Below, in pieces: positions 39,746-59,334 of a DNA stretch of 64,000 nt. The DNA lies in contig CAZQUN010000001.1 of assembly GCA_964596615.1 (NCBI GenBank), positions 66,786-130,785 on the forward strand, given 5' to 3'. A program made the position numbers and the translations under genes. The stretch comes from an uncultured Candidatus Saccharibacteria bacterium (GTDB lineage Bacteria; Patescibacteriota; Minisyncoccia; Portnoybacterales; UBA2143). The notes below the pieces were generated by a model. It ran no database searches and had not been told where the DNA came from. It worked only from the letters and a program-made list of their open reading frames with translations. The first letter of the stretch is position 1, and every line of letters starts with the position of its first letter.

Positions 39746-40609
39746 TTACTCCCAAATTTGCTTCCAGGCAGAGCCGTTGTAACAGTTAAGCTGGTTGTCG
39801 GTGTTGTCAACAAAACACTTTCCTGCAACCTCAGAAGTAGGAGTAGCTGTTGGTTCTAACTTGAGAGTGGTTTGAATGAAGATAGAACTGGTTGTTGCGA
39901 TTGAAGAAGTAGAATTACCGAAATACATAGTCCCGTCAACTTCGACATCACCCTGAACATAGATATCATTGGACATATCAATATTGTTCATTGTTCCTCC
40001 AGCGCCAGCCCAAAAACCGGTTGAAGTTGCTACACCACCAATATTCATGCCATCGCTAACGTCGAATTCTCCCGGGCTGTCATCCCATCTGATAAACTCT
40101 GATGAAGAAGCGTCAAAGAAGATAGAGTCGTCATCATCGGCGATAAGATTACCTACCCAGAAATCATTAGATGTTGAAGCGCTTTCAAAGGTAGCCCAGC
40201 CAGTGCCATAGAGAGTTCCGTCAATTTCAACATCATCCTGGACGTAGAGGTCATTGGACATATCAATATTGTTCATTGTTCCTCCAGCGCCAGCCCAAAA
40301 ACCGGTTGAGGTTACTTTGCCGCCAACGTTAAAATCGTCTGTTAAATCAAACTCTCCTGGAGCATTGTCCCACATTAGCCATTCGCTTCCTGAAGCATCA
40401 AAAAAGAGCGAGTCATCATCATCGGCAATAACATTGCCCAACCAGAAATCATTGGTTGTTGAAGCGCTTTCCATTGTTACAGTTCCAGCAGTATTAATGT
40501 TGCTGTCAATAGTGGTGGCTGCGTAAGTAATTACGCTAACCAAGAAAACCGAAACGATGACACTTAACAAACCAGCAAAAAATTGGTGTTTTTTGAATAT
40601 TTTACTCAT
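39746..40609 (-). CDS. Secreted/anchored protein with two tandem ~95-aa repeats
   Basis: N-terminal TM/signal; the 285-nt DNA repeat is visible as duplicated antisense ORFs both starting MDISILFIVPPAPAQKPVEV. Confidence 0.55.
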   Translation of the reverse strand: MSKIFKKHQFFAGLLSVIVSVFLVSVITYAATTIDSNINTAGTVTMESASTTNDFWLGNVIADDDDSLFFDASGSEWLMWDNAPGEFDLTDDFNVGGKVTSTGFWAGAGGTMNNIDMSNDLYVQDDVEIDGTLYGTGWATFESASTSNDFWVGNLIADDDDSIFFDASSSEFIRWDDSPGEFDVSDGMNIGGVATSTGFWAGAGGTMNNIDMSNDIYVQGDVEVDGTMYFGNSTSSIATTSSIFIQTTLKLEPTATPTSEVAGKCFVDNTDNQLNCYNGSAWKQIWE

Positions 40610-40823
40610 ATAATTCTGAAAAGCTCAAAGTTGAAACCTAAGGTGTATTATTCAGAAGTTCCAAGCCTTAACTTTTCAGCCCTAAAAATATTTTCGACCT
40701 TTCTTGTTTGATAACACTAACCAAGAATACAAACCGACCTTCTTGCATTCTTATAGGAATATATAGAATTTAACTTACTCAATAATTATACCATTGGACA
40801 AGAATTAAAAAAACCTGTCAATT

Positions 40824-40851
40824 GTGGATAAGTTCTATGGTTGTGGATAAT
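40824..40851 (-). promoter_or_regulatory. Two DnaA-box-like 9-mers (TTATCCACA on minus strand) abutting a TTGACA -35
   Basis: TGTGGATAA at 40824-40832 and 40843-40851; the minus strand reads TTATCCACAAccatagaaCTTATCCACAATTGACA. Confidence 0.4.
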
Positions 40852-40855
40852 TAAA

Positions 40856-40886
40856 AGACCCCCGAAAAACGGGGGCCTTTTGTCCA
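40856..40886 (-). terminator. Rho-independent terminator of the 1207-aa gene
   Basis: CCCCCG-aaaaa-CGGGGG hairpin; the minus strand reads GGCCCCCGTTTTTCGGGGGTCTTTT. Confidence 0.7.
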
Positions 40887-40907
40887 ATTCTGTAATAAAC
40901 CTACTCG

Positions 40908-43900
40908 TTAGCCAGACCAACCAATAACATATGGTGTGGTTGAAACAGCATTCTCTAAGCCTGGTACTAAGTGACCGTTATACCACATTGGTAGAGTGGT
41001 AGCGTTGTTAGCGCCAGTTCCTGAAATGCTCGCGCCCTTGTAGTTGTCAGACCATAGGAAGTTACCTAGGTTAGCTGACAGATTCTGGCCGGTTGGGGCC
41101 GTGAATCCTGAGGCGTTGGTAGCATTAGCGAAGTTATGGGTATTAACCTCGTTTGAAGTAGAAACTGTGTCACCAACTAGGAAGGTACTTAGGTTTTCAC
41201 CAGTACCTGCTCCTGAAACAGTACCGCAGACCTTATAAAGTTTGCTTTCGCCAGCCGGAATCTTAATAGCTTCCGTGCTGTCATCAACACTAATGTCTGG
41301 GTTGTCAAAGGTCGCTGTATACCAAGATTCCATATTGCCATCATAGTTGTTGATAGCAGCCGCTGATTTAATCGTATTGCCATCCTGGTCTTTGACATAG
41401 ACATTGGATAATGTCATGCCAGATCCAGAGGTAGCAAAGACGAAAGTAGTTCGATAGAGAAGAACTTCTCCACCGGAAGCATCGGCTGTAACCTTATAGG
41501 CATACATACAAACCGTACCGTTGGTCAGTTCGTCTGCCAAACCGATAGAGTCTGCATCGGTTGAACTAAGTGATCCGGCCTTAGTAACGGTCGGCTTGCT
41601 GGACCTCATAATCATGGCTGAACTGGTTGAATCACGATAAACCTCATAGGTACTAGTGGTAAGTTTGGTATTAGAGGACATACCTGTCGTCTGAATACCA
41701 TTGATACCGCCGATACCAAGCTTTAAGTCAGCTGAGTTAGTACCCGGCGAATTATCGGTGTCTGGGTCAATCGTGCTCATATCGGCTTTGATTGCCAAGG
41801 TCTTATCGCCACCCTTTGGAACGGTCAAGTCGCCAGCGTCAAAGTTGAAGGTGTACTTAGCGGTTGACGGAATAGCCGCTTCGCCTAACTTGGTTGTGCC
41901 ATCATAGACAGCAACATTAGTAAAGTCGCGGTATTCACCACTACCAGCGCTGAAGCCATAACTACCATCAGCTACATAGATTGTCAACTTGTCTAGCCTC
42001 AAATCTTCATACTTGGATGACAGTTTAACGTTGGTAAAGACATTTCCAGTTGAGCCGGCCAAAACAATCGCTGAAGAAGGATTGCTCTCGGTCTCAATTG
42101 TCAATTCTCCATTAGCTCTGGACGTCAAAGTTGGACCATCATCAGAGGTTAAGCTTTCGGTAACTGAGTTACCGGTGTTAACACCATAAGCGGTGATAGA
42201 GTCGCCCCGGAGACCCCAGTTTTCTGTATCATCAGAAACAACTGTGTCTTTATCACCGTGCAACTCAATTGTCATAACCGTACCCTTTTCAATGATGATT
42301 GGCTCTTCCAAAGCGAACGTTGAGGAAGCTGCTGCAGCATCAGAAGAATCAGAAATAGCGTCATTGACTGGAGATTGCGCCACATCATCAGCGTAAACAG
42401 TTAGCGCGTTGGTGTTGGTTGCAGCGAAACCGCTAGCCTTGGCGGTGAAGCCAATAGATGTAATTCTGATGTCTTCTCCTGAGTCAGTCGCATCAAAACG
42501 CCAGCTGGAAAGATTAACATCCTTCTGGTCAATAATGATGTTTGTGTCAGCAGGAAGAGTATTCCTGGTAACTGTCAATGAAGCTGCTTTAACTGTCTGA
42601 GTGTTGCCGCTAATAGATGAGGATGGGGTCGGCGTGATAGAATTGCCGGTTGTAACCCCTTGAGCAGTCATAGCTGAAGGAGTAAAACTGACAACAATAG
42701 TATCATCACTTGCCCAACCACCATTGGTAGCTAGGTCGCCTCGAACCTTGTAAATAGTGTTGCCAACCGGGACGGTAAAGGTATCTGTCCAGGCAACAGT
42801 CAAGACATTGTTAGTAATGTCTGTCGGACCAGCAACAACTGTTCCGTCAGGATCAACTAATTCCAAACCAGTCAAAGCGTCTTCAATCTGACCAGTACCT
42901 CCGCCGGAGGCAACAGTCAAAGTTAGAGCGGAAATATCAATCTCTTCACCCTTAACTTCGAAGTTAAAGGCGCCTAAGATTTGATCATTGGCAACGCCAA
43001 TGTTCTCTGAGCCAACTGAATTACTTCTGGTAACCTGCAAGGTACCATTAGAAATTGTGAATTGGTTATCGCTCAAGACTGGATTGCCACTGCTTGAACC
43101 AGTGCTGCTGTAGGTTGGAGTAATGTTATAACCATAGGTAACACCTTCAACCAATAGGTCGGTTGTTCGGTAAATACCCAGGTCAATGGTTCGAGCTGAA
43201 CCATCTTCAATATCGGCTCTGACTTGATACTGGAGGGTTTGTCCCTTATCAAGAGTAATCGGGTCGAAACTGAAGTTAACGTACTTGCTGCTGGCTACAA
43301 CGCCGTCAGCAACTTTTACTCCATCTTGAAGTAATTCCATGTTAATAACATCAGTTCCTAGAGTAGCGCTACCTTCCTGATAAACCTTAATCTGGCTGAA
43401 TTTAACTTTTTCAGCTGAACCAGCCTGAATCTGGAAGGAAAAGAAGGTGTAATCTTCTTTACCAACCTGAATGCTGGTTGAGGTCGCATTGGTGTAAGCG
43501 CCTCTTTGAACAGTAGCTGTACCAATAGCAATGGTGCTGTTCAAAGTCATTCGGTTACCAGTTAATGGCAAGCTGGCATTTACACTAGCGTCATCTTTAA
43601 CTGTAACAGCAGCTAGAGATAATGACGGTGTTTCACCGTTGTATGAATCTAGGCTGGCAGGCATGTTAGCCGCAATAATAATCGGCTTGGTTGTTCCATC
43701 CTCAACAGTAAAGTCGTTGTTAAAGGTTGACTTATGAAGTGAGTTTAGAGTTTTACTGTTGGTATTGATTGGCAAACCTGTGTCGCCATCAATAAGATCT
43801 AATGAGGAGAAACCGCCATCCTGACCAACGCCAGTTCTTTCAACTACTACCTGGTCAACGATAACATCGCCGCCTGAAGCAGTGAAGTTGAGTTTTGTGA

Positions 43901-44531
43901 AGTAATATCTGGCTGCGTTCTCAACAACGATAGCCGATGCTGGAGTGTCAGCCGCCAAAGAAACTGAAAGAGTTCCTTCGCTGGTAGTAGTGCCTGCTGG
44001 CGGGAAAGTTGCATTCGGATCAGTGACATTAGCACCAGACGTATACCCAGCTGAATCGGTGCTGTTAATGGTGTAAATTGAATCAGCGTCAAAGACCGCC
44101 GTGAACTCACTTGAGGTCATATTGAGCCAATACTTATCACCGGTATCAGTGCCATCGGCAGCATGGAGTCGGTAGACATTGTCAGCTCCATCAACTCTGA
44201 CTAGGTCAGAGGTAGAAAACTCGTCCATGGTTGACTGGTCAACATCCATAACATCATCCCAGTTATCACCATTGCCGTTCTTGTCAAAGTGTGCATAGCT
44301 CTCAAAAACATGAGGGCTAAGAACTAATCTTTTGTACTTCTCGCTGCCAACAACTTTAACAATATAGATGTCGAGTTGAGCTAATCCTGCAGCGCTTGGG
44401 TTGCGGATTAAATCACCATCAACAACATCGACTGCTAAAGCCGCTACTGGAGCAAGCATTGCTACTCCTGAAAGCGATAGAGTTGTAGCGATAGAAGTCA
44501 AAACTGTAATTGACTTTTTCATTTTATTCAT
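40908..44531 (-). CDS. Giant (1207 aa) secreted Ser/Thr-rich surface protein, probable adhesin/S-layer-like with Ig-like beta-rich repeats
   Basis: Signal peptide; N-terminal module shared with the 447-aa protein; low-complexity T/S/G/V-rich repeats. The 262-nt 5' UTR contains the GAGATTG/CAATCTC hairpin. Confidence 0.65.
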   Translation of the reverse strand: MNKMKKSITVLTSIATTLSLSGVAMLAPVAALAVDVVDGDLIRNPSAAGLAQLDIYIVKVVGSEKYKRLVLSPHVFESYAHFDKNGNGDNWDDVMDVDQSTMDEFSTSDLVRVDGADNVYRLHAADGTDTGDKYWLNMTSSEFTAVFDADSIYTINSTDSAGYTSGANVTDPNATFPPAGTTTSEGTLSVSLAADTPASAIVVENAARYYFTKLNFTASGGDVIVDQVVVERTGVGQDGGFSSLDLIDGDTGLPINTNSKTLNSLHKSTFNNDFTVEDGTTKPIIIAANMPASLDSYNGETPSLSLAAVTVKDDASVNASLPLTGNRMTLNSTIAIGTATVQRGAYTNATSTSIQVGKEDYTFFSFQIQAGSAEKVKFSQIKVYQEGSATLGTDVINMELLQDGVKVADGVVASSKYVNFSFDPITLDKGQTLQYQVRADIEDGSARTIDLGIYRTTDLLVEGVTYGYNITPTYSSTGSSSGNPVLSDNQFTISNGTLQVTRSNSVGSENIGVANDQILGAFNFEVKGEEIDISALTLTVASGGGTGQIEDALTGLELVDPDGTVVAGPTDITNNVLTVAWTDTFTVPVGNTIYKVRGDLATNGGWASDDTIVVSFTPSAMTAQGVTTGNSITPTPSSSISGNTQTVKAASLTVTRNTLPADTNIIIDQKDVNLSSWRFDATDSGEDIRITSIGFTAKASGFAATNTNALTVYADDVAQSPVNDAISDSSDAAAASSTFALEEPIIIEKGTVMTIELHGDKDTVVSDDTENWGLRGDSITAYGVNTGNSVTESLTSDDGPTLTSRANGELTIETESNPSSAIVLAGSTGNVFTNVKLSSKYEDLRLDKLTIYVADGSYGFSAGSGEYRDFTNVAVYDGTTKLGEAAIPSTAKYTFNFDAGDLTVPKGGDKTLAIKADMSTIDPDTDNSPGTNSADLKLGIGGINGIQTTGMSSNTKLTTSTYEVYRDSTSSAMIMRSSKPTVTKAGSLSSTDADSIGLADELTNGTVCMYAYKVTADASGGEVLLYRTTFVFATSGSGMTLSNVYVKDQDGNTIKSAAAINNYDGNMESWYTATFDNPDISVDDSTEAIKIPAGESKLYKVCGTVSGAGTGENLSTFLVGDTVSTSNEVNTHNFANATNASGFTAPTGQNLSANLGNFLWSDNYKGASISGTGANNATTLPMWYNGHLVPGLENAVSTTPYVIGWSG

Positions 44532-44784
44532 TTTGTTTCAATCTCTGAGATTGGCTAATTCATATGATATTAAACAATCTCATTCGACTTTTTTATCCCG
44601 TTTTACAGGGATTTCTTCAATCATATCGACCATTTATATTTACGATTGAATCTCTATTTATATCTCAAACCAGTCCAAAAGTCAAGGTTTTTTCACTATT
44701 TACGCGAAAACACGACCAATCCCTGACTTAGGCTTGGACTTCTTCAAATTATACAATAAATAAACTATTTTAAAACAACTTCTT

Positions 44785-44793
44785 TGTGGATAA
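44785..44793 (-). promoter_or_regulatory. DnaA-box-like 9-mer upstream of the giant-protein promoter
   Basis: TGTGGATAA abuts the anti-sigma gene stop; the minus strand reads TTATCCACAaagaagTTGTTT...TATAAT. Confidence 0.35.
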
Positions 44794-45546
44794 CTATTTC
44801 TCAATAATATCGTCTGTTGAAGTCACGGTTTCAAGGAAAATTAGGATTTCCTCGTCAATTATTCCGGTTGTAGTAGCATTATGATTGTTTTCTTCTCCAT
44901 TATCAATTAAAACCGCCAAAATATCCTGGCTAATTTCTTTAATCGTTTTTTCTGCTTCATCAATATCACCCTTAACCTCAATTGGCATTCCTTCCTTGGT
45001 TTTATCCAGGTTTTCCTTTAATCTTTTGGTCTTTTTAGCGACAACAACAGCCTCTTCTTTAGAAGAAATTCCTTTAACATGCTGGCTGAATCCAGCTAAA
45101 TTATCCTTAAAATTAGTCATGACCTGCTTGGTTTTTTCTGTTTTTTCTTCCGGACTAAAGGAATCCCCCGTTATTTTCGCCAATTCCTCTAATCGGCGGC
45201 TGGCAAATTTGACTTCCAGTTGAGTTTTGCTTTCCTGAGAAGCAACTGTTTTCTGAATATCTTCTCCTGCTCTTTTGACCGCATAAAGAAATTCTCCTGG
45301 CAAACTTGGCTCTGAGGCCTTTAATGTCAGCCATGGTCCAAGAACCAGAATCAAGGTCAAAGAGACAGCCAAAGCCATTGGCTGTAATCTCATAAACCAG
45401 CCGAAATCAAGGCTATTCCTTCCTTCTCTAACCATTTCAAAATCAATCTGAGCAGATAAATTACGGCGCAATAAGGCCAGCCAATGGCGAGACGGCTGGA
45501 TTTTATCCAATTTCTTTATTCTTTTGATTAAATCTTGTTCAGTCAT
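44794..45546 (-). CDS. Putative anti-sigma factor (single-TM, coiled-coil ectodomain)
   Basis: Immediately downstream of the ECF sigma gene; one TM at ~aa 55-75; context-based call. Confidence 0.35.
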   Translation of the reverse strand: MTEQDLIKRIKKLDKIQPSRHWLALLRRNLSAQIDFEMVREGRNSLDFGWFMRLQPMALAVSLTLILVLGPWLTLKASEPSLPGEFLYAVKRAGEDIQKTVASQESKTQLEVKFASRRLEELAKITGDSFSPEEKTEKTKQVMTNFKDNLAGFSQHVKGISSKEEAVVVAKKTKRLKENLDKTKEGMPIEVKGDIDEAEKTIKEISQDILAVLIDNGEENNHNATTTGIIDEEILIFLETVTSTDDIIEK

Positions 45547-45590
45547 GTATTACTATATTAAGACGATTAAAAACCCTTTTTGTTACAGGT

Positions 45591-46094
45591 TTAAAGCTTC
45601 TTTTTTAGAGCATTCATTGCCCGATGGACAAGAACCCGGGTTGCTCCCTCTGATTTACCTAAAATCTGGCTAATTTCCTTGGTTGAAAGTTCGTCTAAAT
45701 ACCGCCAGACAATCACATTCTGATGCTCATCTTTTAGTTGAGAAAGCGCCTTTTTAACCCCTTCCATATCCGAGTCTACCTTAATTTTAGCGCCTAGATC
45801 GCTTTTATCTTTAATTCCAGCTAAAACATTCTCGCTCGGGTTTAAAATTATTTCTTTCCTGGATTTCTTCCGATAGAGATCAATAACCAGATTATGGGCT
45901 ATCCGATAAAGTAAAGCCCGCGGATTATCTATCTTTTTCTTTTGGCGGTTGTTTTTAACATTTTGCCAGAACTTAAAAAAGGTTTCTGAAGTCAAATCTT
46001 CAGAATCTTCTGGCGAACTCACCTTTAGGAAAATGAAGCGATAAATTCGCGGAGCGTAGTTATCGTATAGTTTTACAAATTGTCTTTTTCTCAT
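45591..46094 (-). CDS. RNA polymerase sigma-70 factor, ECF subfamily
   Basis: Region 2 LYRIAHNLVIDLYRK and region 4 HTH ISQILGKSEGATRVLVHRAMNALKK. Confidence 0.8.
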   Translation of the reverse strand: MRKRQFVKLYDNYAPRIYRFIFLKVSSPEDSEDLTSETFFKFWQNVKNNRQKKKIDNPRALLYRIAHNLVIDLYRKKSRKEIILNPSENVLAGIKDKSDLGAKIKVDSDMEGVKKALSQLKDEHQNVIVWRYLDELSTKEISQILGKSEGATRVLVHRAMNALKKKL

Positions 46095-46103
46095 TTTAGC
46101 AGG

Positions 46104-46112
46104 TTATCCACA
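46104..46112 (+). promoter_or_regulatory. DnaA-box-like 9-mer, 9 nt upstream of the sigma start codon
   Basis: TTATCCACA on the plus strand. Confidence 0.35.
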
Positions 46113-46120
46113 AAAACAAG

Positions 46121-46213
46121 TAATAAGGAATTAATAAGGAATCTTCAGGATTAATAAGGAACTAATAGGGAATTAATAAGGAATTTTATTGTTCCTTATT
46201 AAGTTCCTTATTA
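46121..46213. repeat. Decamer array: 5 direct TAATAAGGAA (one TAATAGGGAA) plus 2 inverted TTCCTTATTA
   Basis: Seen directly; sits in the sigma promoter region; the inverted copies encode the C-terminal NKELNKEQ of the upstream HTH protein. Confidence 0.8.
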
Positions 46214-46722
46214 TTTCGATAAAAACTACTCCTTCCCCGGCCTTGCTGGATTAATAATTTCCTTTTAACCATTTTATTCAAATCTTTACGGATTGTTCTG
46301 GGATTAACCTTGGGAAGTAAAACTAATAATTCTTTTAATTGAACCTCTCTAACTTCTTTAATATATTTAAGAATCTTCTTTTGTCTTTCGCTTAGATTCT
46401 CAATTCTCTCTTTTTTTAAAAGATTTGTTTGTTCTTTCTTGTTTCCCCGTCTTATCTCTCTTAATAACTCATTATATCCCCTTATTAGTATATCAAAATT
46501 AACGTTTCTTATCCAATTCTGGTCCCGGGCAATTTGAAGATAACTTAAAATGATTTCTATTTTTTTACCGGCCTTTGCCCTTTGGTTTAAAGCTAAATCG
46601 GATAATATCTCATTGGCTATCCCTCTCATCTGGGAAATTAAAATCTCACCCCCGGGGAAAAGCTTGGTCACACGGTATACTGCCAAGCCTAATCTGAGTG
46701 CTTTTTCCTTCAAATCTTCCAT
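46186..46722 (-). CDS. Putative DNA-binding protein with C-terminal winged HTH (DeoR/HTH_11-like)
   Basis: SERQKKILKYIKE...VQLKELLVLLPKVNPRTIRKDLNKMVKRKLL resembles DeoR-type wHTH; N-terminal helical domain. Confidence 0.4.
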   Translation of the reverse strand: MEDLKEKALRLGLAVYRVTKLFPGGEILISQMRGIANEILSDLALNQRAKAGKKIEIILSYLQIARDQNWIRNVNFDILIRGYNELLREIRRGNKKEQTNLLKKERIENLSERQKKILKYIKEVREVQLKELLVLLPKVNPRTIRKDLNKMVKRKLLIQQGRGRSSFYRNNKELNKEQ

Positions 46723-46808
46723 GTATTAAAGAGTATATGATATTTAACAATTCAAGGCAACATAAAAGCGACTAAGAATTACTTTCCCTAGTCGCCATAT
46801 TTTTTGGG

Positions 46809-46898
46809 TGGTGGCGATGACGGGGCTCGAACCCGTGACAGTACGGCTACAGCCCACAGGTTATGAACCTGCCGCTCTATCCTCTGAGCTACATCGCC
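46809..46898 (-). tRNA. tRNA with CAT anticodon (Met/Ile2-type) carrying an unusual 19-nt variable region; 90 nt incl. CCA
   Basis: Hand fold: acceptor GGCGATG/CATCGCC, U8A9, D-stem GCTC/GAGC, anticodon stem GCAGG/CCTGT with loop TTCATAA, T-arm ACGGG-TTCGAGC-CCCGT, encoded CCA. Confidence 0.55.
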
Positions 46899-46911
46899 AC
46901 ACTTTTTGGGT

Positions 46912-46987
46912 TGGAGCGGGAGGCGGGAATCGAACCCACGACCCGCTGATTAAGACTCAGACGCTCTTCCAACTGAGCTACTTCCGC
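46912..46987 (-). tRNA. tRNA-Lys (CTT), 76 nt incl. CCA
   Basis: Hand fold: acceptor GCGGAAG/CTCCCGC (one A-C mismatch), D-stem GCTC/GAGC, anticodon loop GTCTTAA, T-arm GTGGG-TTCGATT-CCCGC, CCA. Confidence 0.65.
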
Positions 46988-47037
46988 CCAAAACCACTTA
47001 GGAACTAAAAAGAATTTATCATAAATATTTTTCCAAG

Positions 47038-47529
47038 TCAAACCTCAACCAACTCCGGACTCGCCCGGACTTTTCTAATGGGCTGGGAAATAAACTTTAT
47101 TTCAGCGGTAGCAATAGTATCTTTTCCCCTCAAAACAATTGCTCGACCTTCGGCCCAAGTATATCTCCCTAAATCTTTACTCGACATATTTTTTGTCCTC
47201 CTAAGCCGAGCCTTAACCACGACACTTTCGCCAATCAGTAAGAGGTTTTCAAAATCTATGATTGACTTCATCTCTACTCTACGAGTCATGCCCGCAATTC
47301 CATTCCTAGCAGCCAAATTACTCACCGCTCCGTCAATTAGACCGAAAATAATCGCTCCATGACAGATTCCAGGCCAACTAACATGGAAAGCATTAGGGGT
47401 AAACTCTGCTTCGCATCTGTTTTTGCCAGTATTTTCAAATTCCAGACCAAGCCCCCATGGATTTGAAGACCCGCAGACAAAACACCTGGGAGAATGTCCT
47501 TCTACTCCTGGCTTGCCATCCATAACCAA
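47038..47529 (-). CDS. Hotdog-fold thioesterase (PaaI/COG2050-like)
   Basis: CFVCGSSNPWGLGLEF matches the conserved N-terminal motif of PaaI-type thioesterases. Confidence 0.55.
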   Translation of the reverse strand: MVMDGKPGVEGHSPRCFVCGSSNPWGLGLEFENTGKNRCEAEFTPNAFHVSWPGICHGAIIFGLIDGAVSNLAARNGIAGMTRRVEMKSIIDFENLLLIGESVVVKARLRRTKNMSSKDLGRYTWAEGRAIVLRGKDTIATAEIKFISQPIRKVRASPELVEV

Positions 47530-47542
47530 TCCCTCTTTATTC

Positions 47543-48142
47543 CTATTTCAAAGAATATCCAGGGATTTTAATTTCCCCGGTTGTGATTTTTTGCAATGTT
47601 TTTGGGAATAAAATATGCTCTTGTTTTAAAACCCGGGCTGCCAAACTTTCTGGTGTATCATTTTTTTCAACCGGAACCCGAACTTGGGCAATAACCGGTC
47701 CGGTATCGTAGTCAGCATCAACAATATGAATTGAAACGCCAGTTTCCCTTTCTCCGGCTTTAAGAACCGCCTGATGAACCCTAATTCCATACATTCCGTC
47801 TCCGCCAAACTTGGGTAAAAGCGCTGGGTGAATATTTAAAATTGCCCCGTTATAGCGAGACAATATTTCCGGTCCGATTTTCTTCATATATCCAGCTAAA
47901 ACCACAATATCAACAGAATGTTTATTCAAGGCATCAATAATGGCCTGATCAAGATTTTGATGAGTCTTATTACTTAAATGAAAATAGGGGATATTTTCTT
48001 TTTTTGCTCTTTTAATTGCCCCTGAATCGCTGTTGTTACTAATGACAACAACCGGCTTTGCTTTCAAAGCCTCTGATTTGCAGGCATCAATAATCGCCTG
48101 CATATTACTTCCATTACCTGATGCTAAAAACCCAATTCTCAT
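47543..48142 (-). CDS. purN: Phosphoribosylglycinamide formyltransferase
   Basis: MRIGFLASGNGSNMQAIIDA; NIHPALLPKFGG; HIVDADYDTGPVIAQ. Confidence 0.85.
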   Translation of the reverse strand: MRIGFLASGNGSNMQAIIDACKSEALKAKPVVVISNNSDSGAIKRAKKENIPYFHLSNKTHQNLDQAIIDALNKHSVDIVVLAGYMKKIGPEILSRYNGAILNIHPALLPKFGGDGMYGIRVHQAVLKAGERETGVSIHIVDADYDTGPVIAQVRVPVEKNDTPESLAARVLKQEHILFPKTLQKITTGEIKIPGYSLK

Positions 48143-48189
48143 CGTTATATCCAGAATACCTTTTCACTATCAAAAGTCAATCTTTTGAC

Positions 48190-48218
48190 TTGACAAAACC
48201 AAATAATTTTGGTAGACT
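48190..48218 (+). promoter_or_regulatory. Sigma70-like promoter TTGACA-17-TAGACT for the His-rich ORF
   Basis: Seen directly; preceded by the AGTCAA/TTGACT inverted repeat. Confidence 0.45.
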
Positions 48219-48281
48219 GAATTAATTGAATTAAAAGAAAAACAAGTTCTCTTTAAATAAATTTCCGAAAAGGAGAGAGAA

Positions 48282-48629
48282 ATGAGAAAAGTAGTAATAG
48301 TTCTTTTTTTAGTCGCTGTTATGATTTTTATGACGGCGATAGGGGCGACGGCTCGCCCTGGTCACGGTCAGGCTCGCGGTCACGGTCCACGATGGCATGG
48401 ACACGGGCATGGTCCACGGTGGCCCCTTGTACCATTTGTGCCATGTCTTGTTTCGTGGCCCCATCGTGATTCACCTCCCCGTGACTATTCCGTACGGTAC
48501 GACCCAGCAGTGCCTGCCCGCGGCTGCTGGATCTGGGTTGAGAGTTACCGGATTCCAGGACATTGGAATCGTCACGGTCATTGGGTCAACGAGCTCCGAG
48601 TGGGGGAATGGAAAAGGTGTCCCCCATAA
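48282..48629 (+). CDS. GC-rich small secreted His/Arg/Trp/Pro-rich protein (115 aa) with HGPRW-type repeats
   Basis: Strong SD AAAGGAGAGAGAA-ATG; signal peptide; ~60% GC body in a ~33% GC genome; strong terminator follows. Confidence 0.5.
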   Translation: MRKVVIVLFLVAVMIFMTAIGATARPGHGQARGHGPRWHGHGHGPRWPLVPFVPCLVSWPHRDSPPRDYSVRYDPAVPARGCWIWVESYRIPGHWNRHGHWVNELRVGEWKRCPP

Positions 48630-48644
48630 AAATAAACCCTTTCC

Positions 48645-48682
48645 GGCCAGCTCTATAAATGTATAGATCTGGCCATTTTTTA
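48645..48682. terminator. Rho-independent terminator (bidirectional)
   Basis: GGCCAGcTCTATAaatgTATAGAtCTGGCC hairpin followed by TTTTTT. Confidence 0.75.
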
Positions 48683-48701
48683 TTATGGCTCGTATTTGAC
48701 A

Positions 48702-49319
48702 TTATCCATTAATATCATTTAGAGCAATTTCGGCAACCTCCTCAGAGACTCCAAATATCTTTGACATTAAGACTGCTAGGTAGGAATCTAATGTCTTTTT
48801 GTCTATTTCCTCTAGTTTCTTGGATAAAGCAAGCTTATCTTTCTCTTTTAGTATTTTGTTTTTTCTAGACGCCAATATATCTCTTGGCACTAGCAAATAG
48901 TTAGCAAATTTATTTGCTTGTGTTTCCAAATAACTATACTGTTTTTCTGGAATTTCTCGGTAAAGCCTGTAAAAATCGATTGGATTTCTAATGTTAAGAC
49001 CCTTATAGAATTCTTTATGCAAAACAAAATGGCCCACTTCATGAGCCAGTGAAAATCTCAAACGATTCTGAAAACGATCGCTTAAAAACCTGCCTTTATC
49101 GACGTAGATGGATTTCCAGTTTGAAGTGATAAGAGCGTCAACATCAAAACTTTTCTGCAGTCCTGACTTGGGAATAAGGTCTATTTCTAGCTTTATATCA
49201 ATAATACTTTCTATATCAACTGGCACAGACCCATCCCAGAATTTTTCCCTAAATAAATCTGCTTTCTTTTTTACGACTAAATTATCTAAAAAGGGAACTA
49301 CTATCTTTCTGTAATCCAT
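48702..49319 (-). CDS. ImmA/IrrE family zinc metallopeptidase (COG2856-like)
   Basis: HEVGHFVLH HExxH motif; directly downstream of an XRE HTH gene. Confidence 0.7.
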   Translation of the reverse strand: MDYRKIVVPFLDNLVVKKKADLFREKFWDGSVPVDIESIIDIKLEIDLIPKSGLQKSFDVDALITSNWKSIYVDKGRFLSDRFQNRLRFSLAHEVGHFVLHKEFYKGLNIRNPIDFYRLYREIPEKQYSYLETQANKFANYLLVPRDILASRKNKILKEKDKLALSKKLEEIDKKTLDSYLAVLMSKIFGVSEEVAEIALNDING

Positions 49320-49320
49320 T

Positions 49321-49692
49321 TCAACTACCCCTGATTAATTCTATTAATTTATCTATTTCTTCCTTGGTCGGTTTTTTATTCCGAACAGTCCTAAAAAAAG
49401 CGGGTAGGTACTCAACCGCATTTTTTTGAGATAAGATATCCCGAGGAATAATGCCTTGAGCCACTTTAGCCTGATCTATAAGCTCCCCGGTTTTATTCTG
49501 GGAGAGTCCTAAAGTTTTTGCCCATTTTCGCAAGATTCTTTCATCAGACGGAGGAGAAATAATTCCTCTTTCTATTTTACTCCAATTACTTGGATCATAA
49601 TCTATTAACCGACACATCTTTCTTAGGGTTAGTCCTCTTTGAATCCTCATCTCTTTTAAGTTTTTACCAAATTTTTTAAGGTTTTTGTACAT
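49321..49692 (-). CDS. XRE-family helix-turn-helix transcriptional regulator
   Basis: LKEMRIQRGLTLRKMCRLIDYDPSNWSKIERG matches the HTH_3 pattern. Confidence 0.75.
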   Translation of the reverse strand: MYKNLKKFGKNLKEMRIQRGLTLRKMCRLIDYDPSNWSKIERGIISPPSDERILRKWAKTLGLSQNKTGELIDQAKVAQGIIPRDILSQKNAVEYLPAFFRTVRNKKPTKEEIDKLIELIRGS

Positions 49693-49719
49693 AATATTAG
49701 AGATAATTATTTATTCTCC

Positions 49720-49739
49720 TGTGGTATTATCCTACCACA
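49720..49739. promoter_or_regulatory. Operator-like palindrome TGTGGTA-ttatcc-TACCACA overlapping the XRE gene -10 region
   Basis: Seen directly; 7-bp perfect arms. Confidence 0.4.
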
Positions 49740-49767
49740 ATAATATGTTGGATGTCAAATAAACATC

Positions 49768-49776
49768 TGTGGATAA
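49768..49776 (-). promoter_or_regulatory. DnaA-box-like 9-mer, 9 nt upstream of the TTGACA -35 of the XRE gene
   Basis: The minus strand reads TTATCCACAgatgtttatTTGACA. Confidence 0.35.
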
Positions 49777-49962
49777 ATTCTACGGTTCGTATCTGATATT
49801 ATCTCCCAAAACAACATCGGAGCTAATAAGCTGCAAGGGCTGAGCACTACCATACCGGAAAAGGATATGGTCCAATTCTCCCCGACTGCCGGTAAAGAAC
49901 TTAATATTCTTCCAGTCGCCAACCGCCGGCGTTGTGCTGACATTGTCTTTTGAATTTTATTG

Positions 49963-51453
49963 TTAAATCTGAACTATTTCGTCCATTTTCGTCTGTAAGA
50001 AATTGTTAATTATCTCGTCCCTATTTCTATCAAGAACAGCATTAAGCAAGACAATTATATCTTTGTCCGTCAAAACAAATACATAAACGCTCCTATTGAT
50101 AACAAAATCTCTACAAGTTTCCAAAGCTCTTTTTTTATTTTTGATACCCCTACACACAATATACCCGATGGTAGATTCGCGGTTATTAAATCTGCCATTC
50201 ATTTGGTCATACTCAGGGTTATTTATGTCGTGACTATAATTCTTACATTCAAACAATATCTTAGCGCAGAATAATCTGCCATAATTAGATAGCCGCGAGA
50301 AAAAACCCCTATCGCTTGAATTATGAAAAGTAATGTCTATTCTTTTTCTGCCTTGGTTTTGGGGGTCTTCCTTTTTAGGACCGCATAAGTAATTACTTGA
50401 ACTGGGGTCATTAAAAATCGTATTTAAACAATCTAGAATATGTTCGTGATAATCGTCAGCATCTTGATTTCCGGGTTTTATTTTTTGAAACATTTTTATT
50501 TTCTGAGTTATAGACTCTTGTATCTCATTTTTTCTTCTTTGCTTCTTTATAATATCTTCGTTTCCAACAGTATTTAAAGCAACCTTGCTCTTTTTGTTCT
50601 TATATTCTTTTAGTAAAGTTGGACGGTCCTTAATATAATCAAACACTAGTTCCCGTGACAGATTATACCGCCCATCTTTTTTAAGAGTCTTCTTGTATGG
50701 TTTAGCTATGCTTTTGTCTTTAAGAGTCCGACATAAAGCAGTTCTCAAATCATAATGTCTGGCTTGCTCAAACTCCAGTATTCCTTTGTTGTAAAAGTCA
50801 GCATAATTTATTGAGATATGTCTTCTTAATACCCTTTTAGGCACTAGCAACATCTTTTTACCTTCAACCACCAATAATCTTTCTTGGTTTTTCTGAAGAA
50901 AATCCCTTTTAGACTCATCCCAAAATATCTTGGTCTGAGTTTCTGCCATATCAATACCATATAAATCACATTGTTGTTGGGTATACTTAATTAAATCTAA
51001 TCTAATTATGTTCGTTACAATATCAGATACATTATCATTTCCGATATTCTCTATATGTAACGCGGTATCTTCAAGGTCGTTTAAATAACCAGACTTAACC
51101 GCCTTACTCTCTTTTAATTTACGGTAAATAGCTCTTGATTTTTTTCTGCCAATAGATTTTCCATCCTTTGTCTTGCGACCATAACCCAGTCCAGTTTCGC
51201 TAGGTTCGTGTAAATTATCTAATAAATCTAAAGCTTTATCCCTATTGCCCTTACGGATATAATTTATCAATCTTTCAAAAACAGATTGTATCTTTTGATA
51301 GCAATCCACAGAAAAATCATCATCTCCGCATCTTATAGCCCAAGGATCAATAAATAGAGGCGTATCCTTTTTGATAAAGCAATCAAAAAAATCCAAATCA
51401 TACTGGGTTTTTCCTAATTCAAAATATTCGGAAATAGTCTTTTTCATTTTCAT
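49963..51453 (-). CDS. Hypothetical protein with C-terminal PD-(D/E)xK nuclease-like motif (restriction-endonuclease-like; possible defense protein)
   Basis: RIDITF ... LFECKNY (D...ExK arrangement); the 350-aa N-terminal domain has no recognisable motif. Confidence 0.35.
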   Translation of the reverse strand: MKMKKTISEYFELGKTQYDLDFFDCFIKKDTPLFIDPWAIRCGDDDFSVDCYQKIQSVFERLINYIRKGNRDKALDLLDNLHEPSETGLGYGRKTKDGKSIGRKKSRAIYRKLKESKAVKSGYLNDLEDTALHIENIGNDNVSDIVTNIIRLDLIKYTQQQCDLYGIDMAETQTKIFWDESKRDFLQKNQERLLVVEGKKMLLVPKRVLRRHISINYADFYNKGILEFEQARHYDLRTALCRTLKDKSIAKPYKKTLKKDGRYNLSRELVFDYIKDRPTLLKEYKNKKSKVALNTVGNEDIIKKQRRKNEIQESITQKIKMFQKIKPGNQDADDYHEHILDCLNTIFNDPSSSNYLCGPKKEDPQNQGRKRIDITFHNSSDRGFFSRLSNYGRLFCAKILFECKNYSHDINNPEYDQMNGRFNNRESTIGYIVCRGIKNKKRALETCRDFVINRSVYVFVLTDKDIIVLLNAVLDRNRDEIINNFLQTKMDEIVQI

Positions 51454-52454: not shown

Positions 52455-52835
52455 ATTTTTATTATACTGACTATTTCTATAAAATCAACCCTGACAGATA
52501 GATGGATATTCAACAGAGATTAGATAGTAATCTTTTTAAAAATAAAAACCCAATAGGCCGTAAACTATTGAGTAAAAAGTTCTTTTCCTAGCCAGTTGTC
52601 TAATAGTTCCCAGATAATACTTGGATTAGCATAGCACCATCATCTCCTTTGTATACTTTAATTTAGGAATCCGAGAAAATCAGGTTCTCTAGGGTTTCCG
52701 AAGATTTACATATCTCCCCATAGAAACTGCAAGGGCTTGGGGCGTGAACTAGCCGAGCCTCATTTACAGCAACTGGCTAGGAAAATAGCTAGCGTATTTA
52801 GTTTAATTCTTTTATTTTATTTTGTCAAATCATCA

Positions 52836-53729: not shown

Positions 53730-53738
53730 TTATCCACA
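53730..53738 (+). promoter_or_regulatory. DnaA-box-like 9-mer adjacent to a bidirectional terminator
   Basis: TTATCCACA on the plus strand; a GCCGC-tggg-GCGG hairpin + T6 follows at 53741..53767. Confidence 0.3.
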
Positions 53739-58122: not shown

Positions 58123-58149
58123 CCCTTATATTATACCACACTACTCTAA

Positions 58150-59325: not shown

Positions 59326-59334
59326 TTATCCACA
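59326..59334 (+). promoter_or_regulatory. DnaA-box-like 9-mer, 5 nt upstream of the -35 of the FN3/PKD gene promoter (TTGGCT-18-TACAAT)
   Basis: TTATCCACA on the plus strand, 3 nt after the stop of the peptidase gene. Confidence 0.35.

Follow-up and report, generated by a model that had tools for sequence, protein, structure and literature searches.

A lineage-specific repeat array across the stop codon of a Patescibacteria winged-helix regulator gene, a predicted cis-linked operator

In a 64,000-nucleotide (nt) stretch of the genome of an uncultured bacterium of the Patescibacteria, referred to here as the window, seven copies of a decamer lie between the gene for a 178-amino-acid (aa) regulator with a winged helix-turn-helix (wHTH) domain and the gene for an extracytoplasmic function (ECF) sigma factor, the first two of them inside the last codons of the regulator. 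Based on homologous loci in related bacteria, we consider it rather likely that the regulator binds this array, in which its stop codon lies, as its cognate, cis-linked operator. Such an operator would probably be occupied cooperatively and in helical phase, gating transcription into the ECF sigma gene, and would probably act by repression. A first-pass annotation of the window had proposed an iterated operator of a multimerising regulator, possibly the adjacent wHTH protein, that controls the sigma and anti-sigma genes, and a predicted site of this kind is the reading best supported by comparison: the position of the array is kept, its unit follows the regulator, and unit and wHTH domain covary.

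The genes concerned are all on the minus strand, in the order regulator (46186..46722), a 91-bp spacer, ECF sigma factor (45591..46094), DUF5667 protein (44794..45546) and a 1207-aa protein (40908..44531). On the plus strand the decamer TAATAAGGAA occurs exactly at 46121, 46132, 46152 and 46174, and a fifth direct copy, at 46163, is the A>G variant TAATAGGGAA, the five together spanning 46121-46183. Two exact inverted copies (TTCCTTATTA on the plus strand) follow at 46192-46201 and 46204-46213, 12 nt, or four codons, apart. All seven copies described in the first-pass annotation were confirmed, and Tandem Repeats Finder reports the same stretch (46121-46185, period 11, 6.1 copies, score 81; 46191-46213, period 12). 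The annotation's description of the direct copies as five tandem decamers holds for their number but not strictly for their arrangement, since the spacing is 11, 20, 11 and 11 nt, i.e., a 2+3 arrangement with one unit skipped. The inverted copies encode the last residues of the regulator, ...NNKELNKEQ and the stop (the open reading frame, ORF, ends in FYRNNKELNKEQ and the stop codon), and the translation of ORF 46186..46722 agrees with the C-terminus NKELNKEQ-stop read from them earlier. From the regulator towards the sigma gene, the parts of the array are:

46204..46213, minus strand: distal inverted copy, TAATAAGGAA on the gene strand, within the last regulator codons (NKEL)
46192..46201, minus strand: proximal inverted copy, encoding NKEQ and reading TAATAAGGAA on the gene strand; it forms the left arm of the stop-codon palindrome
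46186..46188, minus strand: regulator stop codon TAA; a perfect 11-bp palindrome, TTAATAAGGAA / TTCCTTATTAA, has it in its 8-nt centre, 46184-46191
46174-46183, 46163-46172 and 46152-46161, minus strand: three direct copies at 11-nt spacing, TTCCTTATTA / TTCCCTATTA / TTCCTTATTA on the gene strand
46142..46151, minus strand: non-repeat spacer, the "skipped unit", ATCCTGAAGA on the gene strand; the flanking copies are about two helical turns (20 nt) apart
46121..46141, minus strand: sigma-proximal direct doublet, TTCCTTATTA twice at 11-nt spacing, ending 26 nt before the sigma ATG

The first-pass annotation had also named an observation that would speak against an operator, namely that the array is a common genome-wide simple repeat unrelated to promoters. 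The rest of the 64-kb window holds two stray exact copies of the decamer (17117 and 34976) and no second array of the unit, and with up to one mismatch the decamer occurs 21 times in the whole window, with 15.5 expected. As these window-wide counts are near expectation, seven copies in 93 bp are a local cluster rather than a genome-wide repeat. Within the 250-nt region of the array the best 8-mer occurs 8 times; no more than 6 copies were reached in any of 100 shuffles, and no more than 5 in any of 74 other windows. The array sequence is identical in two independent assemblies (L001 and L002), which rules out an assembly artefact.

The evidence that carries the operator reading comes from relatives. 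Homologous loci were gathered by exact-protein look-up and by scans of genomes and metagenomes, and the 3' end of each regulator gene was read; the comparison covers 22 Patescibacteria lineages, with regulator homologues of about 26-72% identity. In all 22, short repeats straddle the stop codon of the regulator and continue to the next gene, and the sequence of the unit is lineage-specific. The layout is shared: one to three copies in the same orientation lie inside the last codons, usually 12 nt apart; the stop codon, as in the window, is in or beside the junction of inverted and direct copies; and two to eight copies in the opposite orientation follow, about 11 nt apart with occasional gaps of 20-21 nt. 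The 11-nt spacing with such gaps is found in most lineages, the gap being present in L003, L006, L009, L010 and L025. In many lineages the array ends only 3-9 nt from the downstream ATG. Copy number exceeded that of all 100 shuffles in 11 of the 19 lineages tested by 8-mer counting, a method without power for arrays of two to four copies (L011, L012, L020, L026 and L029), which rest instead on exact 10-11-mers read directly. The units are:

Window: TTCCTTATTAA
L003: TTTCCGGATAA / TTTCCAGATAA
L006, L009 and L010: TTTCCCTAT(A/T)A, in L009 and L010 also written TTTCCCTATAA
L011: TACCTTATTAA
L012: ATGTCACTATT
L018: TTGCCYTATTA
L019: ATGTCCGCA, seven copies
L020 and L041-L043: TGTCCTA(T/A/C)C, in L042 and L043 also written TGTCCTATC
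L021: TTCGCAT (4+4)
L025: TGCCCTATTAA, eight direct copies forming four doublets
L027: AATCACGCCAA
L029: TTTCGTGAT
L030: TGACCCATTAA
L039: TTGCATCGTA

Some loci show variation of their own. Strains with an identical 180-aa regulator differ in copy number, L027, L028 and L031 having a 3+3 arrangement and L032 and L017 a 3+2 arrangement (three versus two AATCACGCCAA after the stop). Several units are translated as part of the ORF in the L027 lineage, where some gene calls span the whole array (198-205 aa). In L043 two extra units (CGGACAT and AGGACAT, within 1880-1925) lie just upstream of the -35 element of the regulator's own promoter, which suggests additional, predicted autoregulation there; no extra upstream units of this kind were seen in the window or in the other loci checked.

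That the array is a neutral, slippage-prone minisatellite in an AT-rich spacer is very improbable. Its copy number is indeed polymorphic among strains with identical regulators, and the genome is AT-rich (GC about 0.34-0.39). Against this, position and architecture have been kept over 22 lineages despite complete turnover of the unit, the array intrudes into coding sequence, its spacing is near one helical turn, and unit and wHTH domain change together. Elsewhere in these loci, too, a 250-nt window seldom reaches the copy numbers of the array.

The constant partner of the array is the regulator and not the sigma factor. The downstream gene encodes an ECF sigma factor in 14 lineages, usually followed by a DUF5667 gene and including the distant subfamily L041-L043; it is RmlA-like in L018, L019, L021, L026, L029 and L030, and GalU-like in L020 and L039. 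Because the array is kept in these eight rmlA/galU lineages, what it invariably accompanies is the gene for the protein that joins a helical bundle to a wHTH domain. The pairing was pursued with a covariation test, in which a 9-nt consensus of the unit was registered by hand for 20 lineages. Distance between units tracked distance between wHTH domains (Spearman 0.28; partial Mantel r=0.29, p=0.0024, controlling for the N-terminal domain) but not distance between N-terminal domains when the wHTH domain was controlled for (partial Mantel r=-0.12, p=0.80), figures that are to be read with the hand registration and the phylogenetic non-independence of the 20 lineages in mind. The regulators of the window and L003 are 90% identical in the bundle and 57% identical in the wHTH domain, and their units differ. 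The predicted recognition helices also sort with the units: RTIRKD pairs with the type ..CCTTATT, RTIRN(D/Y) with ..CCCTAT and ..CCGGAT, and RTLRRD with TGTCC... We take the covariation as supportive rather than decisive with regard to a regulator-operator pairing.

The regulator itself, for which named homologues exist in Candidatus Portnoybacteria and other Patescibacteria, has two predicted domains and a short tail:

46186..46722, minus strand: regulator gene, 178 aa; N-terminal four-helix bundle (about 2-108), DeoR-type winged helix (about 112-170), tail (172-178)

The winged helix matches PF08220 (E=6.7e-8, 32.6 bits versus a cutoff of 21, residues 113-163), as do 12 of 17 regulator homologues. 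No match to the DeoR_C sugar-phosphate effector domain was found at E<=1 in the regulator or in the homologues scanned, and against the whole-protein NCBIfam DeoR equivalog the regulator scores 16.7 bits versus a cutoff of 351. An AlphaFold model (mean predicted local distance difference test, pLDDT, 81.6) has four long helices at 2-108 and the winged helix at 112-170. The low-confidence tail of the model, 172-178, is exactly the stretch encoded by the inverted copies, and its sequence tracks the DNA unit lineage by lineage. The bundle is structurally closest to 2gsc, 2rld and Avd, and its four-helix-bundle fold can be superposed on PF05635 structures. At E<=1 the window regulator had no match to PF05635, its N-terminal domain going unrecognised above threshold; this family is matched below threshold by 8 of 17 homologues (best E=0.001), and two distant members scanned singly reached 17-20 bits versus a cutoff of 33.8. 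On the modelled fold, the N-terminal domain is a four-helix bundle like those of Avd and the 23S rRNA intervening-sequence (IVS) proteins. Avd is a pentameric barrel (PMC6182149), and the 2gsc and 2rld structures each hold five chains, A-E. The family comprises 1119 clusters at 50% identity (E<=1e-10), and a profile search of all ORFs of the window for a paralogue matched only the regulator gene itself. A link to diversity-generating retroelements (DGRs) through the Avd-like domain was considered and rejected: there is no reverse transcriptase and no template/variable repeat pair, and the repeats are 10-11 nt long and not adenine-mutated copies.

How the array might act depends on the transcription of its neighbours, for which the following features are relevant:

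46767..46796, minus strand: terminator-like hairpin and T-run after tRNA genes, preceding the regulator promoter
46732..46760, minus strand: regulator promoter of sigma70-like type, TTGCCT-17-TATACT; 9 nt separate its end from the ATG
45591..46094, minus strand: ECF sigma gene, 167 aa (Pfam Sigma70_r2/r4 and TIGR02937), directly downstream of the array
45562..45587, minus strand: ECF-type promoter, TGTAAC-N16-CGTC, within the 44 bp that separate the sigma gene from the anti-sigma gene
44794..45546, minus strand: gene for a DUF5667 protein, 250 aa (PF18915, E=9e-10), a presumed anti-sigma factor with conserved synteny

The regulator promoter, which has a homologous counterpart in L012 (TTGCCC-17-TATACT), ends so near the ATG that the mRNA is predicted to be nearly leaderless, and the terminator-like hairpin is predicted to insulate the regulator-sigma unit from upstream transcription. 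The first-pass annotation had placed the array on the ECF sigma promoter, a placement that is not established: scans of the 91-bp spacer (46095-46185) found no sigma70-consensus promoter, no ECF-type promoter and no terminator-like site, and the conserved ECF-type promoter sits downstream of sigma. The element TGTAAC-N16-CGTC is conserved in L004, L006, L009 and L010 (TGTAAT-N16-CGTC in L012 and L042), and 45587-45562 is its sole match within 40001-50000 of the window. The predicted ECF-dependent promoter is thus that of the anti-sigma gene rather than of the sigma gene. With no ECF promoter before it, sigma would depend on transcription that starts at the regulator promoter and reads through, or on a weak promoter that the scans did not recognise.

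Two candidate sigma promoters were rejected. The match GGATAAC-N17-CGTC (L003 and L010) owes its CGTC to the Arg-His codons of the sigma N-terminus, which read AGAC in the window, and its start would fall inside the ORF; in a sigma70 promoter built of repeat units, the TTCC.. and TATTAA parts would be 11 or 22 nt apart, not 17, and the consensus scan of the spacer was empty. The absence of a Shine-Dalgarno motif is likewise uninformative as a sign of a leaderless sigma mRNA, as about 80% of the genes in the window have none. Several first genes of operons have a -10 element only 6-9 nt before the ATG, e.g., TATAAT-AAAAAT-ATG at 52455-52469 and TATAAT-ATAAGGG-ATG at 58123-58138 (upstream of 52454 and 58122; 46722 is a further case). 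This suggests, from sequence, that leaderless or near-leaderless mRNAs are widespread in the window, and a near-leaderless start for sigma is plausible.

These features bear on a rival in which the same regulator would be an activator: the proximal 11-bp doublet would take the place of the absent -35 element, bringing RNA polymerase to a weak -10 element by a near-leaderless start, in a manner resembling that of PhoB at pho boxes. In the clade of the window the doublet is followed by a conserved 26-nt block, TTGTGGATAACYTGSTAAR-ATG, with a TAACYT hexamer 6 nt before the ATG; the spacer has no -35 consensus, and many first genes of the window combine a -10 element 6-9 nt before the ATG with the lack of a Shine-Dalgarno motif. 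The candidate -10, however, is weak and not conserved beyond the close clade, and in L012, L018, L019, L027 and L029 the arrays come within 3-9 nt of the ATG, where they would cover the -10 and the start site. We regard activation as unlikely, though deserving of some weight.

Marginally further down we would place an element that acts in RNA, an improbable reading in which inverted and direct copies pair in the read-through transcript as a long hairpin that would terminate or attenuate transcription, be processed by an RNase, or stabilise the regulator mRNA at its 3' end, and in which the additional direct copies are alternative pairing registers. Folding of the window RNA (46085-46235, minus strand) gives -37 kcal/mol (z=-4.2), a stability reached in 0 of 200 shuffles, hairpin potential has z from -2.4 to -5.3 in 12 of 17 lineages, and in L021 complementarity reaches into the spacers between units. 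Yet tandem direct copies are universal, and four lineages show no excess of folding: L027 (z +2.0, with every copy in the same orientation), L019 (+0.5), L025 (+0.2) and L006 (-0.9). A hairpin would leave unexplained why direct copies outnumber inverted ones, spacing by a helical turn is meaningless for an RNA stem, and the covariation of the unit with the wHTH domain is not accounted for. Moreover, the stem is AT-rich and lacks a U-tract, the terminator scan of 46095-46215 was empty, and an Rfam search at E<=1 returned only a sub-threshold artefact of a miRNA hairpin (28.9 bits versus 90) and no family match.

Between the array and the sigma start the first-pass annotation had noted a DnaA-box 9-mer, and it is indeed there: TTATCCACA matches exactly on the plus strand at 46104-46112, 9 nt before the sigma ATG (46094).

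46103..46112, minus strand: perfect match to the DnaA-box consensus, TGTGGATAAC on the gene strand, 8 nt before the sigma ATG
40823-40831, 40842-40850, 44785-44793, 46104-46112, 49768-49776, 53730-53738 and 59326-59334, both orientations: exact copies of TTATCCACA in the window

Seven copies compare with 0.49 expected, a number reached in 0 of 100 shuffles, and all seven are intergenic; most of them adjoin a sigma70-like promoter, just before it or at its side, or immediately follow a stop codon. The box before sigma is conserved in L003, L006, L009, L010 and L023 and absent from more distant arrays. Syntenic copies occur elsewhere in related loci, e.g., directly after the anti-sigma stop in L003 and L006. 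From this distribution the 9-mer looks like a separate, genome-wide intergenic regulatory box that merely adjoins the array and may be bound by DnaA or by another factor.

On the surface the locus looks like an iteron origin or R1 parC: its 11-bp direct repeats fall into two blocks, its DnaA box is perfect, and a winged-helix gene lies alongside. That it is a replication origin, or a centromere-like partition site with a Rep- or ParR-like wHTH protein, is nonetheless the least credible of the rivals. GC skew stays negative over the whole 64 kb and shows no inflection at 46 kb, and the genes on both sides are on the same (minus) strand. No ParM, ParA or Rep gene is adjacent, the neighbours being purN, tRNAs, ECF sigma and anti-sigma; TTATCCACA boxes are dispersed over intergenic regions, with a single one at the array and none in the arrays of distant relatives, and the context (purN, tRNAs) is chromosomal and syntenic in many genomes.

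From the anatomy of the array, its conservation, its linkage to the regulator rather than to sigma, its covariation with the wHTH domain and the predicted protein fold, we infer binding, its stoichiometry and the sign of regulation as follows. Each 10-11-bp unit would be the site of one winged helix. The two convergent units around the stop codon would form a head-to-head palindrome for nucleation, and further subunits would be added head-to-tail along the direct copies, all on one face of the helix because the copies are 11 nt (20-21 nt at a skipped unit) apart, with the four-helix-bundle domain, as an oligomerising domain, supplying cooperativity. The bound complex, between the regulator gene and sigma, would control transcription that reaches sigma or starts there. 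Repression would be likeliest, whether the complex stops read-through as a roadblock or occludes a weak, near-leaderless promoter; the arrays that end 3-9 nt from the ATG leave no room for a promoter beyond them, which favours repression or a roadblock. The anti-sigma gene would be driven separately by the conserved ECF-type promoter downstream of sigma.

Several observations weigh against this reading. The spacing is 9-13 nt in some lineages (L019 and L042), and in the short arrays of L012, L020, L026 and L029 repeat counts alone are not above those of shuffles. The sigma promoter could not be located by scanning, which makes the proposed sign and mode of regulation tentative, and the conserved 26-nt gap from the last unit to the ATG in the clade of the window would also permit the geometry of a PhoB-like activator. 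Inverted and direct copies are able to pair in RNA in most lineages, and the reservations attached to the covariation test count here as well.

The proposed operator has parallels in several known systems. The winged helices of PhoB and PhoP bind 11-bp direct repeats head-to-tail near a core promoter. Unlike PhoB, which is controlled by phosphorylation and serves a global regulon through a fixed box, the regulator has no receiver domain, apparently a single local target, and a lineage-specific unit. With the DeoR family, some members of which are reported to have repeated operators, it shares an HTH that matches PF08220; unlike in DeoR, this HTH is C-terminal rather than N-terminal, and the DeoR_C sensor is replaced by the N-terminal Avd/IVS-like bundle. 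The Avd and 23S rRNA-IVS ("S23p") proteins, unlike the regulator, are single-domain, and Avd works with the DGR reverse transcriptase.

In parC of plasmid R1 two sets of five 11-bp iterons flank a promoter and ParR binds cooperatively, making parC the operator of the adjacent promoter (PMC2241845). As in ParR/parC, short 11-bp direct repeats lie in two blocks beside the gene of a (here predicted) binding protein, with a specificity that is cis-linked and divergent between families. Unlike ParR, which is a ribbon-helix-helix protein, the regulator combines a winged helix with a four-helix bundle, has no ParM or partition function, and is chromosomal, in bacteria of the Candidate Phyla Radiation (CPR). 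And unlike parC, which is upstream of its operon and flanks a defined promoter, the array is downstream of the regulator gene and overlaps its stop codon. The omega heptads of pSM19035 are contiguous short repeats of mixed orientation that form operators of variable copy number (PMC9499535), features shared by the array; omega differs in its 7-bp period, its ribbon-helix-helix dimer, its location on a plasmid, a single repeat shared by several promoters, and its second role as a centromere-binding protein. BldC, a small regulator, multimerises asymmetrically, head-to-tail, on a variable number of direct repeats (PMC5859096), and differs from the regulator in its MerR-like fold, its lack of a separate oligomerisation domain and its multi-gene regulon.

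The array, then, belongs to none of the parC/ParR, omega, pho box or BldC systems, and the protein is neither ribbon-helix-helix, OmpR-type, MerR-like nor canonical DeoR. Literature searches on the regulator family, on DUF5667 and on ECF regulation in CPR bacteria found nothing relevant, and no description of an Avd/IVS-like bundle fused to a wHTH domain or tied to repeat arrays was found in the searchable literature. Three features are new: the modelled fusion of an Avd/IVS-like bundle to a winged helix, a predicted operator that lies where the regulator's own gene ends and extends into its 3' codons, and a putative operator unit that differs from lineage to lineage throughout a CPR family which is very large and is linked to envelope genes.

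By analogy with Avd a bolder arrangement can be envisaged, which we think unlikely but worth stating. The regulator could assemble into a barrel-shaped oligomer like the pentameric Avd, with several winged helices pointing outward and the array wrapped around it (about 55 bp for five 11-bp units), as a small nucleosome-like roadblock at the end of the regulator gene, and so set, co-transcriptionally, the ratio of the regulator's own message to that of the downstream sigma (or rmlA/galU) gene. The operator would then drift together with the wHTH domain because it is the single target.

Elsewhere in the window and its relatives, a few observations touch the neighbouring genes. The spacer 44532-44793 (minus strand), before the gene for the 1207-aa surface protein, is strongly conserved in L004, L006, L010, L012 and L014; its sigma70-like promoter reads CTTGACT-N17-TATAAA, and its leader, about 110 nt long, has conserved blocks AGTCGAATGAGATTGTCTAATATCATATGAATTAGCCAATCTCAGAGAT and a stem GAGATTG/CAATCTC. 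The spacer also has a compensatory inverted repeat, AGTCCAA/TTGGACT in the window and CTAAACGT/ACGTTTAG in L012. An Rfam search of the spacer gave no match, and the leader may be an undescribed cis-regulatory RNA. A tRNA with anticodon CAT (46809-46898, minus strand; 87-90 nt) has a long insertion resembling an extra arm (GGGCTGTAGCC...), which is unusual for the Met/Ile2 type. Inside ORF 39746..40609, for which Pfam gave no match, there is a 285-nt tandem repeat at 39929-40471 (1.9 copies, 77% match); it probably reflects the duplication of a domain in a protein encoded downstream of the giant surface-protein gene. A Y1_Tnp gene (IS200/IS605-like or RAYT-type, PF01797) stands beside purN, two to three genes upstream of the regulator, in L003-L006 and L009, and not in the window.

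Regulation in CPR bacteria is almost unstudied, since the organisms are not grown in pure culture, and the locus offers a concrete, predicted regulator-operator pair: a small, soluble-looking protein, an obvious repeat site, and natural variants that differ in predicted specificity. At every locus examined the regulator is directly upstream of cell-surface functions, either a cassette of ECF sigma factor, anti-sigma factor and giant surface protein, or rmlA/galU, and such functions are thought to be important for the episymbiotic lifestyle of CPR bacteria. The recurrence of the layout across the CPR points to a large, unstudied family of regulators upstream of cell-envelope genes; were the roadblock arrangement true, this family of more than 1000 clusters would be an unrecognised class of "self-terminal" roadblock regulators of such genes. 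The locus would also be a clean natural example of a transcription factor and its predicted operator co-evolving around a single cis-linked target, with the operator written partly in the last codons of the regulator itself.

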